Below, one piece after another: positions 57,109 through 63,286 of a stretch of DNA of 64,000 nt (its first letter is position 1; each line of letters starts with the position of its first letter). Location: assembly GCA_965116325.1 (NCBI GenBank), contig OZ220675.1, positions 316,235 through 380,234 of the forward strand, read 5' to 3'. A program made the translations under genes and the position numbers. Below the pieces are notes generated by a model that saw nothing but the letters and a program-made list of their open reading frames with translations, was not told where the DNA came from and ran no database searches. Source of the DNA: Dehalococcoidia bacterium (GTDB lineage Bacteria; Chloroflexota; Dehalococcoidia; Lucifugimonadales; JAGWBF01).

Positions 57109-57183
57109 TGGCTCCCCGGGCAGGATTCGAACCTGCGACCTAGCGGTTAACAGCCGCCCGCTCTACCGCTGAGCTACCGGGGA
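57109..57183 (-). tRNA. tRNA-Asn(GTT)
   Basis: TCCCCGGTAGCTCAGCGGTAGAGCGGGCGGCTGTTAACCGCTAGGTCGCAGGTTCGAATCCTGCCCGGGGAGCCA; intact cloverleaf with encoded CCA. Confidence 0.97.
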
Positions 57184-57641: not shown

Positions 57642-57716
57642 TGACTCCCCGGGCAGGATTCGAACCTGCGACCTAGCGGTTAACAGACGCCCGCTCTACC
57701 GCTGAGCTATCGGGGG
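57642..57716 (-). pseudogene. Degenerate tRNA-Asn copy
   Basis: Four differences from 57109-57183: two acceptor-stem mismatches, one anticodon-stem mismatch, CCA changed to TCA. Confidence 0.85.
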
Positions 57717-60262: not shown

Positions 60263-60928
60263 ATGGAAGAGCAGCATCGAGAAGAAGAGCTTGCGGAGCT
60301 CAAGCTCTTTCCCCTGAACGTCGTCCTGTTTCCCGGAATGCCCATGCCCCTGCGCATCTTCGAAGAGCGATACAAGCTGATGATCAACGAGTGTATCGAC
60401 AACTCAGAGGCGTTCGGTATCCTCCTAATCCGCGAGGGCCCCGAGGTCGGAGGCGGCGCGGTCCCCCACGCCATCGGCACCACAGCACGGATCACAGAGG
60501 TGGAGCGGCTGGAGGATGGCAGGATGAACCTGTCCACCACCGGGGAGACCCGCTTCCAACTGGTCGAGCCTCTGTACAACGCGCCCTATCTCCGGGGCAA
60601 GGTAAAATACCTGTCCGAAGAGGTGGGAGAAACCCAGGAGGGAGTACAGGAGGAGGCCCGCCAGCTATTCCAAGAATTCATCCGAGGCCTCTCAGGTCTG
60701 CGCGGAGGCTGGATGAGGAGCGCCAACGCTCCCGGCGACCTCGGCGTGCTGTCCTACTCCATCGCCCACTACCTGGACCTGCCAGCCATCGCCAAGCAGC
60801 GCCTCCTGGAGGTGCCCCAAGCCGGCGAGCGCCTGCAGTACGAGATACCGCTGCTGCAGGGGGCCGTTCAGCGCCTCCGGGAAGAGACGGTCAAGCGCAA
60901 CCCCTACCAGGGCCCACGCCTGAACTAG
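60263..60928 (+). CDS. LON peptidase substrate-binding domain protein
   Basis: LFPLNVVLFPG, LRIFEERY, GETRF. Confidence 0.9.
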   Translation: MEEQHREEELAELKLFPLNVVLFPGMPMPLRIFEERYKLMINECIDNSEAFGILLIREGPEVGGGAVPHAIGTTARITEVERLEDGRMNLSTTGETRFQLVEPLYNAPYLRGKVKYLSEEVGETQEGVQEEARQLFQEFIRGLSGLRGGWMRSANAPGDLGVLSYSIAHYLDLPAIAKQRLLEVPQAGERLQYEIPLLQGAVQRLREETVKRNPYQGPRLN

Positions 60929-61006
60929 CGCGACTCTACGGGCATCTTCCCGCCCTCTGTGTCCCCCAATTTCAGGCTTGATCTAGCTCTTTGGCCTAGA
61001 CTCTGA

Positions 61007-61924
61007 CTATGTCCCTTGGTAACGCAGCACAGCCTCCGCTGGTGGCTCTCCTTCGAACAAGTCGGGATGGAGCACCTTGGCGAGAATCTCCACTCCGTCA
61101 ACCAACCGGGGGCCTGAGCGGGTGAAGTAGGAATTAGAGTTGACCACAAAGACCTGCCCGTTCCTCGCAGCCGATAAGGAGCTCCAGCCCGGCAGGTCCG
61201 TGAGCAGCGACACCTCTTCCATGCCTTTGCTCACATCGAAACCACAAGGCGCCACAAGAATCACATCGGGGTCCTGGGCCACCACTTTGTCCCAGCCGGT
61301 CTTTCGGGAGGGGCGCCCGGCCCTTCCCAGGCAATCGACTCCCCCGGCTGCCTCGATCATCTCCGGCACCCAGTGACCGGCGTACATCAGCGGCTGGAGC
61401 CACTCCAGGCAGGCCACTCGTTTCTCGTCGGCCTGCCCAATGACCGTCCTAACCTCATCGATCCGGGCCTTCATTTGCCTTACAAGTTCCACCGCCGCAT
61501 CTTCGCACGCGGCGGCGGCTCCAACACGCCCGACATCGTCGAACACATCCTGGAGGCTCGTCGGGTCCAGGGTGATTATCATGGGTTGCTTATCCAGCAC
61601 CTTGCACGCCTCGGCAACCTGCCGGGCAGTGATCGCTCACTCTTCGCACAGAGCCTGGGTCAGGATGATGTCCGGGTCGGCTTCCCTCAGCACATCCTGG
61701 TCTATCTCGTAGATGCCTTTGCCCTGGACCAGGCGCTCCCGGATCCACTGATCGATCTCGCCGCTGCCAGCCGTCTTGTTGTCCAGGGTGCTATAGACCA
61801 CCTTGGGAACATGCAACGCGGCAGGAGGATAGTCGCATTCGTGGCTCACTCCGTACAGGCTATCTCCCAGCCCAAGGGCGTACACAATCTCGGTGGCCCC
61901 GGGAATGAAGGAACAGATTCGCAT
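61007..61924 (-). CDS. BtuF-like (cobalamin-binding fold) protein, probably with selenocysteine at the in-frame TGA 61637-61639
   Basis: Two in-frame ORFs join as ...SHECDYP...TQALCEE(U)AITARQV...LEW..P...GHWVPE...PCGF...RSGPRL (305 aa). Confidence 0.8.
61605..61631 (-). promoter_or_regulatory. Candidate bacterial SECIS element
   Basis: CAC-U-GCC-CGGCA-GGU-UGCCG-A-GGC-GUG hairpin beginning at +6 after UGA, apical loop G at +18/+19. Confidence 0.65.
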
Positions 61925-62074
61925 GGCCGGCCCCTCTCAGCTTGGTTGGCGCTTTTGGTTGCATTATGCCAAGAAGGCTGTTTCCCGTACAGGCAGCCCC
62001 CCAGGCTGCGTTGTACCTGCAGTGCCCCCATGATATATTGACTCCACCCACACCAACCTCTCTCAGGAAGCGAC

Positions 62075-63286
62075 ATGGTGCAAGCCCAAGAAATAAAGAG
62101 CATGAAATTGGTCTCCCACCATGACCTCGACGGGTTCGGCAACGTGGGCGAGGGAATGGCTATCCAGCAGTATCCCGGCGGGCGGCGACTGCTATATCTG
62201 GCCCACGAAAGTTCCCCCAAGGATGTGACGGTGGTGGACGTCACCGACGTCGCCAACCCCAAGGTGGTGCTGCAGACCGAGCTCCCACACCGAGAGATGC
62301 GCTCCAACTCCCTGGCGGTGGTGGGCGACATCCTGTACGTCGCCTACCAGGTAGCAAGGCCGGGCATGACACCCGCCGGCATGGGCATATACGACATCAG
62401 CAAACCCGGCGAGCTCCGGCAGATCAGCTTCTTCGACACTTCGGGGCCAGGCTCCAGAGGTGTGCACTGCTTGTGGTGCGTGGACGGGCGCTACGCTTAC
62501 CTGAGCACAGGGAGCCGGGACCAGATGCCCCGAAATCCCAAGGACGACCAGTTCTACATGTGCGTGGATGTGAGCGACCCCTCGAAACCTGAGGAGGTCG
62601 GCCGATGGTGGCTGCCGGGCACCATGGACGGGGATGAGGAAGACCCGCCGGAGAGGCACCCCCAATTCGACACCGGCTTTCGCCTTCACAACGCCAACGT
62701 TTATCCCGAGAGGCCCGACCGGGCCTACCTGGGCTATATCGACGGTGGTTTCATCACCCTGGACATCTCGGACATGGCCAAGCCCAGGGTCGTGAACCAT
62801 GTGGACTACCATCCGCCCCTCATCGGCTTCACCCACACCGTCGTCCCCCTGTTCCAAAGGGAGCTGCTGGTGGTCAGCGAGGAGGCAATCACCCAGGATG
62901 GCTGCGCCGACTGGCCCAAGCTGGTGTGGATCGTGGATGTCAGCGTAGAGTCGAATCCGGTGATGCTCAGCACCTTGCCGATGCACAAGGACACCTACGG
63001 GGGCCTGCCGGGGCGCTACGGCGCCCACAACGTCCATGAGAACCAGCCGGTGCCAACCTCCCACATCGACGAGAACATCGTGTATGGCACCTACTTCAAC
63101 GGGGGCGTTCGCGTTCACGACATCTCCGATCCCTTCCGACCCGAAGAGATCGCCTACTTTGTCCCACAGGTGCCCGAGGGCGCTTCGGCCAACGGGGTCA
63201 ACGATGTGTACGTGGACGAAAACCGGCTTATCTATGCTGTGGACCGCATCGCCGGCGGGCTATATATCTTGGAGCCCGACTTCTAA
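62075..63286 (+). CDS. LVIVD-repeat beta-propeller protein
   Basis: Repeated VVDVTDVANP, IYDISKP, VDVSDPSKP, LDISDMAKP, HDISDPFRP; GVH, LHN, FTHT, GAHN His motifs. Confidence 0.88.
   Translation: MVQAQEIKSMKLVSHHDLDGFGNVGEGMAIQQYPGGRRLLYLAHESSPKDVTVVDVTDVANPKVVLQTELPHREMRSNSLAVVGDILYVAYQVARPGMTPAGMGIYDISKPGELRQISFFDTSGPGSRGVHCLWCVDGRYAYLSTGSRDQMPRNPKDDQFYMCVDVSDPSKPEEVGRWWLPGTMDGDEEDPPERHPQFDTGFRLHNANVYPERPDRAYLGYIDGGFITLDISDMAKPRVVNHVDYHPPLIGFTHTVVPLFQRELLVVSEEAITQDGCADWPKLVWIVDVSVESNPVMLSTLPMHKDTYGGLPGRYGAHNVHENQPVPTSHIDENIVYGTYFNGGVRVHDISDPFRPEEIAYFVPQVPEGASANGVNDVYVDENRLIYAVDRIAGGLYILEPDF

Follow-up and report, generated by a model that had tools for sequence, protein, structure and literature searches.

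On the minus strand between 61924 and 61007 of the window (the whole 64,000-nucleotide stretch of Dehalococcoidia DNA that was analysed), two open reading frames are parted by a single TGA. Is this the wreck of a gene, or an intact gene in which the TGA is read as selenocysteine (Sec), and what would the product of such a gene do? The region holds a single 305-codon frame with one TGA within it and a TAG at its end. The 95-aa frame (61924..61637, the final three bases being the TGA) and the 197-aa frame (61600..61007) both belong to it, and the sole in-frame TGA is codon 96 (61639..61637), lying in TQALCEE-TGA-AITARQ exactly as an earlier note on this DNA had read it. That note had allowed for reads with TGC or TGT at this site; a Logan contig of run X1 carries TGA there and shows 0 differences from the window over 60900-62100. 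Run X1 is probably the window's own source sample, so that the match confirms the letters but gives no independent support. The gene and its unusual codon are:

61007..61924, minus strand: complete gene of the predicted selenoprotein, 305 codons plus TAG; Peripla_BP_2 (BtuF-like) fold, signal-less (from frame, Pfam, AF2 and Foldseek)
61637..61639, minus strand: UGA codon 96, putatively read as Sec; second position of CxxU (C93-E-E-U96), from the homologue alignment

An in-frame UGA at a conserved cysteine position

The Pfam match to PF01497 (E 1.1e-21) covers residues 8-262 and runs across codon 96. A Cys occupies the TGA column in 17/17 full-length homologues, within the motif TQxLCxxCA, which agrees with the TQxxCxxCA motif that the earlier note gave for this family, with the TGA at its second Cys. 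A protein alignment of 109 rows comprises 39 Sec-type (TGA) and 70 Cys-type sequences, and Cys stands at the codon-96 column in all 70 of the latter. A survey of 61 genomes of the same order yielded 44 matches, 27 of them, whose identity ranges from 100% to 51%, with a single in-frame TGA, and the column of the TGA is identical in 27/27; in the 26 Sec-type genomes other than this one, the matches span residues 1-305 at 51-88% identity. Loci from named records, taken as the best 80 of more than 590 relatives, include 13 with a TGA, all at this column, whose labels read Dehalococcoidia, Chloroflexi or ‘uncultured bacterium’. The alignment of homologues thus bears out the pairing that the earlier note had looked for at this position, with TGA in 27/27 and 13/13 Sec-type relatives and Cys in all Cys forms. 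From this column on, the Sec forms have a common peptide, UA[IV][TS].RQVA, where the Cys forms begin CAV.

The machinery for Sec insertion, which the note had listed as selA, selB, selC and selD, is present in the same genome: selA (546 bits), selB (314 bits), selD (373 bits) and tRNA-Sec (70 bits) all score above their curated cut-offs, and ARAGORN reports a tRNA-SeC with anticodon tca. The selD gene itself contains an in-frame TGA. Among genomes carrying a Sec form of the present gene, selA was found in 26/27. TGA is also the terminator of orthologues of this gene in 9/30 loci of relatives, indicating that it works as a stop codon in their genomes.

In a quick IQ-TREE tree, the 39 Sec rows all fall on one side of a single branch (SH-aLRT 100); as judged from the aligned sequences, a single switch from Cys to Sec, within Dehalococcoidia, gave rise to the Sec form.

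A conserved hairpin follows the UGA

Two nested elements were delimited 3' of the UGA:

61608..61627, minus strand: conserved core of the SECIS-like hairpin, 7-8 pairs, bulged A61611, loop A-GGU-U (GGU at 61619..61617), from covariation and RNAalifold
61605..61631, minus strand: extended hairpin, three further pairs (61631-61629 with 61607-61605) under a bulged U61628, from the centroid fold

The centroid fold of the 43 nt from the UGA contains 11 pairs (61631-61629/61607-61605 and 61627-61620/61616-61608), bulged U61628 and A61611, and an apical C-A-GGU-U, so that the 11-bp bulged hairpin previously noticed directly 3' of the TGA is recovered. The hairpin encodes the peptide common to the Sec forms; its core begins 9 nt past the UGA, and 16 nt separate the UGA from the loop. 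The folding energy is not distinctive, with z = -0.59 over 43 nt and -2.14 over 71 nt, and the minimum-energy fold of the 71-nt sequence has another lower stem and draws the UGA into a different small stem. Because energy is uninformative in a G+C-rich gene, covariation was relied on instead. In the hairpin alignment of relatives, 95.7% of cells are paired, three pairs show changes on both sides, and CAGGU is invariant; the covariation score was reached in 0/500 shuffles, and slid controls were 18-71% paired. The compensatory cases comprise third positions of Ala codons that co-vary with a Glu/Asp change, and CGA/GUC in place of CGG/GCC. RNAalifold independently predicted the same helix. It is this comparison of relatives that marks the hairpin as more than chance. 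Of 26 distinct relatives, only 6-8 keep the three lower pairs, suggesting that these are specific to this genus.

The SECIS element of E. coli fdhF contains the sequence GCAGGU. We take the present hairpin to be like it in lying directly 3' of the UGA within the coding region, in carrying a bulged base in its stem and in exposing a G and a U at its apex, some 20 nt past the UGA. It presumably differs in its shorter stem, of 7-8 conserved pairs, and in its bulged base, an A on the 3' side; we assume it to be a putative target of SelB. UGA codon 96 would be recoded to Sec by SelB and tRNA-Sec, directed by the 3' hairpin.

The stretch 61924..61007 is very probably one intact gene for a predicted 305-residue selenoprotein with Sec at UGA codon 96. 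The lone nonsense mutation that the earlier note had set against this reading is not borne out, since relatives share both the TGA and the hairpin. It is scarcely credible that a simple nonsense mutation or a fault of assembly produced the TGA, so that what is left would be a pseudogene or a pair of small genes: public gene callers do list just the 197-aa C-terminal piece for this gene and five close relatives (P0002-P0005, P0021, P0029), but all 39 Sec-type rows, from a clade whose members have diverged to roughly 50% identity, have the TGA at a single column and conserve the sequence on either side, the hairpin is kept with compensatory changes, the genome has the Sec machinery, and the Logan contig, probably from the same sample, is identical. 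With the gene intact, as is very probable, the callers have cut it in two and left its tail alone on record, here and in close relatives, and the selenoproteomes of these Dehalococcoidia are undercounted. A look for transcripts listed no RNA data set that contains the stretch.

A binding-protein fold with four invariant cysteines

The AF2 model has a pLDDT of 92.8, falling to 74 in the CxxU loop. Its best Foldseek matches are heme- and B12-binding proteins (TM 0.7-0.8), among them 5y8b, 5ysc and 1n4a (TM 0.68-0.81, E 1e-17), and the protein is predicted to have the two-lobed class III binding-protein fold seen in BtuF and in heme-binding proteins. A search of the ESM Atlas with a natural Cys-type homologue (P0006) returned only Peripla_BP_2 or ‘cobalamin-binding’ clusters, and relatives are annotated in source records as ‘iron complex transport system substrate-binding protein’ or ‘cobalamin-binding protein’. 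No dedicated selenoprotein model of NCBIfam was matched, and TIGR04281, TIGR03868 and the BtuF equivalog NF002894 were far below their cut-offs, the last at 34.2 bits against 234.

Four positions, C30, C93, C/U96 and C227, are occupied by Cys or Sec in 109/109 sequences, and Q90, W175, H184, W185 and R273 are likewise invariant. The codons of the three cysteines are:

61835..61837, minus strand: Cys30, invariant (109/109 C); HECDYP loop after strand 2, N-lobe (DSSP of the model)
61646..61648, minus strand: Cys93, invariant (109/109 C); first position of CxxU
61244..61246, minus strand: Cys227, invariant (109/109 C); PCGFD loop, C-lobe

DSSP of the model places the invariant residues on loops at the C-terminal ends of β-strands, with C30, C93 and U96 coming from N-lobe loops and C227 from a C-lobe loop. 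Since such strand-end loops make up the ligand cleft of this fold, the four residues should form one Cys3Sec site, the meeting of their side chains being read from the topology of the model.

A predicted cytoplasmic protein apart from any transporter

The N-terminus, MRICSF, lies at the first strand of the fold, the Pfam match begins at residue 8, which corresponds to profile position 6, and a listing of ATG, GTG and TTG frames gives no in-frame start upstream after the preceding stop. None of the 109 sequences has a leader, every one beginning at the first strand; the canonical BtuF genes of B12 operons, by comparison, encode hydrophobic leaders of 25-60 residues ahead of the matching KRI.SL.P stretch. 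The neighbouring genes encode an LVIVD-repeat protein (divergent), a Lon N-terminal-domain protein (convergent), an M20 peptidase, a luciferase-like oxidoreductase and an NMT1-like protein, and no ABC permease or ATPase was found adjacent to the gene or in the 10 kb past the end of the window. Elsewhere in the genome, two FecCD genes above cut-off lie at 686 kb and 1103 kb, each adjoining its own Peripla_BP_2 gene; the selenoprotein gene, at 377 kb, is a third and isolated one. The absence of a signal peptide and of an adjacent permease or ATPase, both pointed out beforehand, therefore stands, and the suggestion drawn from them, that this is not a transporter subunit, fits the signal-less start, the orphan position and the two permeases already provided with binding proteins.

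The protein is thus predicted to be cytoplasmic and to serve no ABC importer as its binding subunit. An everyday exported binding protein for a BtuCD- or Fhu-type importer, its gene having drifted from the operon, would account for the Peripla_BP_2 match, the annotation of relatives and the fold matches to BtuF, RhuT and ShuT, but is highly improbable given 0/109 sequences with a leader, operons in which a family member stands alongside a canonical BtuF with one, the FecCD permeases of this genome with binding proteins of their own, and an NCBIfam BtuF score so far under its cut-off.

A possible link to corrinoids in distant relatives

The family extends from Nitrosopumilus and haloarchaea to Nitrospira, Acidobacteriota and Dehalococcoidia, and Rubrobacter taiwanensis and Haloarcula rubra are among its cultivated carriers. 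Clustering of gene neighbourhoods (20 same-order loci, and the best 80 of more than 590 loci across many phyla) revealed no partner common across phyla. A Lon N-domain neighbour occurs in 12/20 same-order loci and in 13 of the best 80 of more than 590; being convergent and confined to Dehalococcoidia, it is read as lineage-wide synteny. Genes for a HAD hydrolase, a squalene/phytoene synthase and an amine oxidase form a context specific to Nitrospira, and some Sec-type loci have an OsmC-like and a RidA-like gene (PF01042, Ribonuc_L-PSP) upstream.

A cobalamin riboswitch (RF00174) was found within about 8 kb at 6/34 Cys-type loci scanned, against a chance rate of roughly 1-2% per 17-kb locus, as estimated from the present genome, whose 2.37 Mb contain two riboswitches. 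At four loci from four phyla (L095, L105, L102 and L120), the riboswitch and a gene for a TonB-dependent receptor come first and the family member follows them, all in one orientation; at L095 and L105, genes for a canonical BtuF, an ABC ATPase and a FecCD permease come next. Five of the six riboswitch loci belong to a 17-row sister group at 42-46% identity; the larger clade has a riboswitch at 1/21 Cys-type loci scanned, on the opposite strand (L104). Near Sec forms none was detected (0/18 loci), nor was one present in the window. The two riboswitches of the present genome precede a FecCD gene and an ABC ATPase with CobT; by its gene content, this genome imports and remodels corrinoids.

The occurrence of distant Cys-type relatives in riboswitch-controlled B12 uptake operons, beside a canonical BtuF, favours a cytoplasmic corrinoid-handling role, which we put forward tentatively: the protein may bind a corrinoid after uptake, its thiol/selenol site ligating cobalt or processing the cofactor. 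An imported corrinoid would be bound in the cytoplasm by the BtuF-fold selenoprotein, whose site would ligate the cobalt, or remove the upper ligand or reduce Co(III), and the corrinoid would then be passed to enzymes that use or remodel the cofactor. As a nucleophile or reductant, the selenol would surpass the thiol of the ancestral form. Against this role, the B12 link comes almost wholly from a distant clade, and in Dehalococcoidia the gene is without an informative partner. The aromatic residues with which E. coli BtuF holds B12 are presumably not kept, Q90 probably standing in place of Trp85.

Other uses of the four-residue site

The four invariant Cys/Sec might instead hold an Fe-S cluster, or one metal ion (Fe, Zn, Co, Ni or Cu), between the two lobes, the protein being a cytoplasmic carrier or sensor with no direct role in corrinoid handling. 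Exactly four such residues are invariant, three from one lobe and one from the other, an arrangement that suits a cluster or a metal ion equally well; the lowered pLDDT of the CxxU loop is as expected for a site modelled without its cofactor; and 28/34 Cys-type and 19/19 Sec-type loci have no B12 context. Chelatases and nitrogenase-type cluster-binding domains are also members of the superfamily to which the BtuF-type fold is assigned. We nevertheless consider this unlikely, as Sec is rare as an Fe-S cluster ligand among known selenoproteins and riboswitch-controlled B12 uptake operons contain the gene in four phyla, where chance would place a riboswitch at about 1-2% of loci.

Alternatively, C93-x-x-U96 could work as a thiol/selenol redox pair on disulfides of proteins or small molecules, in which case the fold would supply only substrate recognition and the protein would be a general oxidoreductase unrelated to B12. 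CxxU is a redox motif in many catalogued selenoproteins, according to the tables of PMC9312934 and PMC13188914, and the OsmC-like and RidA-like genes upstream of some Sec forms would suit such a function. The fold, however, is not thioredoxin-like: no thioredoxin-like Pfam match was obtained, and the listed fold matches are periplasmic or ABC-type binding proteins. Moreover, C30 and C227 are as invariant as the CxxC pair, pointing to a four-ligand site, and the B12 operon context likewise speaks against such a pair, making this quite an improbable account.

To return to corrinoid handling, a bolder form of it, which we regard as rather unlikely in full, is that the signal-less four-Cys BtuF-fold family constitutes the missing prokaryotic cytoplasmic chaperone for B12 processing, which would take corrinoid from BtuCD, ligate cobalt through Cys3(Cys/Sec) and strip or reduce the upper ligand. 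A periplasmic binding protein would here have moved into the cytoplasm as a functional analogue of human CblC/CblD. Were this so, the reactive residue would have been upgraded to Sec in Dehalococcoidia, tying selenium supply to B12 use. Should the family process corrinoids after import, a missing step of B12 trafficking in prokaryotes would be supplied, and the Sec form would mark the residue that does the chemistry. The interest lies in the family as a whole, a widespread and presumably cytoplasmic B12/heme binding-protein fold with a four-Cys site, found in B12 uptake operons of several phyla.

Comparison with known systems

[quoted passage not shown] As described in those tables, that family has the same BtuF-like/Peripla_BP_2 domain, CxxU motif and single Sec as the present protein; the selenoprotein family is already catalogued, and the selenoprotein call adds nothing new to the catalogues. 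Both tables credit it to Peng et al. 2016 (PMC5029168), whose main text contains neither ‘BtuF’ nor ‘cobalamin’, so that the original description must be in the supplements. The passages on BtuF or cobalamin in PMC9312934 and PMC13188914 give no function, SECIS analysis or phylogeny for the family, and, among the titles and abstract openings listed by a literature search, none describes a function for the Cys-type signal-less BtuF-like family.

A characterized relative in structure is BtuF, the periplasmic vitamin B12-binding protein of the BtuCDF importer (PDB 1N4A from E. coli, 5YSC from Vibrio cholerae), with which the present protein shares the two-lobed class III fold (TM 0.66-0.83), the N-terminal RI.SL.P..TE and C-terminal R.GPR motifs and, in some relatives, co-location with B12 uptake genes. 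Unlike BtuF, it has no signal peptide and has four invariant Cys/Sec; its gene is isolated from btuCD in the genome and scores 34 versus 234 bits on the NCBIfam BtuF model. Linkage to a FecCD permease and an ABC ATPase is seen only in some distant Cys-type relatives, whose loci also carry a canonical BtuF.

SaoB and SaoX are Sec-containing substrate-binding proteins of ABC transporters thought to bind a metal or organometallic ligand, and, as presented by Haft and Gwadz (bioRxiv 10.1101/2022.07.06.499078), they likewise combine a binding-protein fold with a Cys/Sec cluster in the presumed ligand pocket. In that description they differ from the present protein in their signal or lipoprotein leaders, their CU or UxP motifs, their place in an ABC operon of anaerobes and their membership of other binding-protein classes. 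The protein studied here, unlike SaoB and SaoX, is of the BtuF class and predicted to be cytoplasmic.

In human cells, MMACHC (CblC) and MMADHC (CblD) are cytoplasmic acceptors of newly imported cobalamin that perform thiolate chemistry on cobalt (dealkylation or decyanation, and Co-S coordination). We suppose that the present protein may work in a like manner, by analogy only and with no known relationship of sequence or fold.

A very probable selenocysteine codon in a conserved reading frame

The BtuF-like gene is a single 305-codon frame on the minus strand (61924..61007), and its sole interruption is a TGA at codon 96 (61639..61637), within the peptide TQALCEE-U-AITARQ. The two same-frame ORFs from which the earlier note had pieced it together, of 95 aa (61637..61924) and 197 aa (61007..61600), are both present in the mechanical ORF list, and the Peripla_BP_2 Pfam match (residues 8-262) spans the TGA. 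The TQxxCxxCA motif that the earlier note gave for this family proved to hold: in 17 of 17 full-length homologues (46-55% identity), a Cys occupies the TGA column within an invariant TQxLCxxCA. Six-frame searches across 61 genomes from the same order yielded 44 matches: 17 have no in-frame TGA, and 27, which are 51-100% identical to the query, contain exactly one, at the identical column in 27 of 27. Among the best 80 loci of named public genomes, 13, labelled Dehalococcoidia, Chloroflexi or 'uncultured bacterium', have TGA at the column and 67 have TGC or TGT, one of the latter (locus L123) being assigned Cys by eye. TGA is also the terminal stop of 9 of 30 orthologues, and therefore serves as a stop codon in these genomes. 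One public sequencing run, probably the source sample, holds the stretch, and its contig is identical over 60900-62100. The gene very probably encodes a selenoprotein, with Sec inserted at codon 96 in what would be a SelB-dependent manner; a pseudogene is extremely improbable, as relatives share the codon.

The window's own genome, a single contig of 2.37 Mb, was searched for the Sec machinery that this reading presumes: selA (546 bits), selB (314 bits, a 650-aa frame), selD (373 bits) and tRNA-Sec (70 bits) are present, and ARAGORN reports a tRNA-SeC with anticodon tca. The selD gene (G000:C1:1013107-1014030, locus L012) contains one in-frame TGA, suggesting that selenophosphate synthetase is itself a selenoprotein here. 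selA was detected in 55 of the 61 genomes, including 26 of the 27 with the Sec form (the lone miss is rated 91% complete) and all six with Cys forms alone; the Sec trait is thus common across the order, and having it cannot alone tell the two forms apart.

The SECIS hairpin

The hairpin proposed earlier is the centroid fold of the 43 nt from the UGA, with 11 pairs, a bulged U, a bulged A and the tip C-A-GGU-U. Its folding energy is ordinary for its composition (z -0.59 for 43 nt; z -2.14 in a fold with a different lower stem), so that the single sequence does not show a hairpin beyond chance. A gapless alignment of 60-nt stretches around the TGA from 27 genomes revealed a conserved helix of eight pairs (columns 19-26 with 30-38), with one bulged A and the loop GGU. 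In this helix 95.7% of cells are paired, both sides have changed at three pairs, and the covariation score was matched by none of 500 column shuffles, while sliding the 3' partners as a control gave pairing of just 18-71%. An independent RNAalifold run predicted seven of the eight pairs. The core of the 11-bp hairpin is conserved; its three extra basal pairs occur in just 6-8 of 26 distinct sequences. In one compensatory change an Ala codon varies at its third base in concert with a Glu/Asp replacement; in another, CGA (Arg) occurs together with GUC (Val replacing Ala). These compensations run across the coding constraint. CAGGU is invariant in the 27 genomes, and the apical loop starts 16 nt past the UGA, a spacing at the lower edge of the range for bacterial SECIS models. 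In the second Sec subgroup (TQAICEVU), CGGCAGGU.GCCG is retained and the lower stem differs slightly. The hairpin-encoded peptide RQVA is absent from Cys forms.

Fold and invariant residues

An AlphaFold2 model built from an 18-row alignment (pLDDT 92.8, dipping to 74 in the CxxU loop; pTM 0.90) was compared with known structures by Foldseek. The best matches are periplasmic heme- and B12-binding proteins, RhuT (5y8b), V. cholerae BtuF (5ysc), ShuT (2r7a) and E. coli BtuF (1n4a), with E about 1e-17 to 1e-13 and target-normalised TM 0.79-0.82, and a profile search of PDB sequences agrees. As had been claimed, there is no signal peptide: the protein starts at the first beta-strand, an upstream in-frame start is absent, and the N-terminus MRI(C/V)S(F/L)LP is common to all relatives. 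The protein is presumably cytoplasmic. Across 109 bacterial and archaeal sequences C30, C93, C/U96, C227, Q90, W175, H184, W185 and R273 never vary, unlike C4 (84/109) and C172 (86/109). By the model's secondary structure the invariant residues lie on post-strand loops of both lobes, which is the site of the binding cleft in this fold, and the side chains of C30, C93, U96 and C227 may meet there as one Cys3Sec site.

B12 context and possible function

Loci of relatives were scanned for Rfam families. A cobalamin riboswitch was found in 6 of 34 Cys-type loci and in none of 19 Sec-type loci, the window included; from two riboswitches in the 2.37 Mb of the own genome, we estimate the chance per 17-kb locus at about 1-2%. 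In L095 (bacterium HR37), L105 (Ignavibacteriales), L102 ('Deltaproteobacteria') and L120 (Pyrinomonadaceae), a same-strand riboswitch is followed by a TonB-dependent receptor and then by the family gene; three of these loci have a protein of about 495 aa between receptor and family gene. Its Pfam matches in L095 and L105 are weak and of beta-propeller type alone (DUF5074, Lactonase); that of L102 has no Pfam match. Past the family gene, L095 and L105 encode a canonical Peripla_BP_2 protein whose leader is hydrophobic, together with an ABC ATPase and a FecCD permease. The riboswitches of L137 and L104 lie on the opposite strand.

Proteins of about 495 aa and own-genome riboswitches
L095 6438-7928: protein of about 495 aa
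L105 3884-5389: protein of about 495 aa
L102 2124-3602: protein of about 495 aa
G000:C1:685673-685855 (L155): cobalamin riboswitch, first of pair
G000:C1:2236692-2236873 (L156): cobalamin riboswitch, second of pair

One of the own-genome pair precedes a FecCD permease adjoining a Peripla_BP_2 gene, and the other an ABC ATPase and a CobT-type (DBI_PRT) phosphoribosyltransferase gene, which points to import of corrinoids and remodelling of their lower ligand.

We tentatively favour a putative cytoplasmic corrinoid acceptor or processor, in which the thiolate/selenolate of the site would act on cobalt. In this it would parallel human CblC/CblD, the likeness being one of analogy. The family's B12 link is limited: five of the six riboswitch-positive loci fall in a 17-row sister clade (42-46% identity), and the clade with the Sec forms has a riboswitch in 1 of 21 Cys-type loci and in no Sec-type locus. 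An Fe-S or metal site at the same invariant residues is an unlikely rival to the corrinoid reading, and a general thiol/selenol oxidoreductase, for which the CxxU motif would speak, is less likely still.

Gene neighbourhood

The earlier note saw no adjacent ABC permease or ATPase, and the gene indeed stands alone within the window.

Neighbouring genes in the window
One flank: LVIVD-repeat gene, divergent
60263-60928, plus strand, other flank: free-standing Lon N-terminal substrate-binding-domain protein (PF02190, E 2e-34), convergent
57112-57183, minus strand: tRNA (Rfam 71.9 bits), downstream of the luciferase-like gene
57645-57716, minus strand: tRNA (Rfam 56.1 bits), likewise downstream

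Beyond the flanking genes lie an M20 peptidase, a luciferase-like oxidoreductase, the two tRNAs and an NMT1-like protein, and the 10 kb past the window end hold amidohydrolase, dehydrogenase, amidase, cyclophilin, hydrolase and Peripla_BP_6 genes. The matching place holds a tRNA in three relatives' loci (L055-L057). Two FecCD permease genes of the own genome, located at 686 kb and 1103 kb, pass the family cut-off, and both adjoin a Peripla_BP_2 gene of their own; the selenoprotein gene, which lies at 377 kb, is an isolated third member of the Peripla_BP_2 family. An exported transporter subunit, which the periplasmic structural matches would suggest, is very improbable for a leaderless and isolated gene.

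A Lon-domain gene also adjoins the family gene at 12 of 20 loci within the order and at 13 of the best 80 loci from many phyla, every one of them from Dehalococcoidia; we therefore read the pairing as inherited gene order, though the two genes may be linked in function. In Nitrospira-type genomes (L125 7293-11130 and 12 other Nitrospirota loci) the Cys-type gene is flanked by a HAD hydrolase gene on one side and by genes for a squalene/phytoene synthase and an amine-oxidase-type flavoprotein on the other, all on one strand, a context that looks like hopanoid/carotenoid synthesis, not B12.

Origin of the Sec form

In a quick maximum-likelihood tree (109 rows, 108 distinct; midpoint root), the 39 Sec rows are split from all others by a single branch (SH-aLRT 100). 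This would fit one Cys-to-Sec change within Dehalococcoidia, kept through deep divergence. Ten Sec-form relatives carry a Cys-type second copy (G050 a third too), 37-42% identical to the query; the own genome has the Sec form alone. The functions of the two forms may be split.

Second Cys-type copies, examples (eight more rows besides)
G010:C7:1061053-1061955
G017:C7:540214-541119
G012:C1:116126-117028

Relation to known selenoproteins

The earlier note's statement that Sec forms occur in computational surveys is borne out by the relevant passages of two reviews (PMC9312934, 2022; PMC13188914, 2026), which credit Peng et al. 2016 (PMC5029168). Neither 'BtuF' nor 'cobalamin' occurs in the main text of that paper, so the entry must be in its supplementary tables. 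Our literature search found no functional study of a BtuF selenoprotein and, among titles and abstract beginnings, nothing relevant on the function of the Cys-type family. The window gene is a further member of a selenoprotein family already catalogued, its function uncharacterised. Beyond this, the analysis supports the SECIS by covariation, gives evidence that points to one origin of the Sec form within Dehalococcoidia, and describes an invariant site of four residues, the gene's isolation as an orphan in its own genome and the B12 operons in which distant Cys-type relatives occur. SaoB and SaoX, in the parts of Haft and Gwadz's account that concern them, are also Sec-containing binding proteins, but they differ from the BtuF-like selenoprotein in being exported and in belonging to other binding-protein classes.
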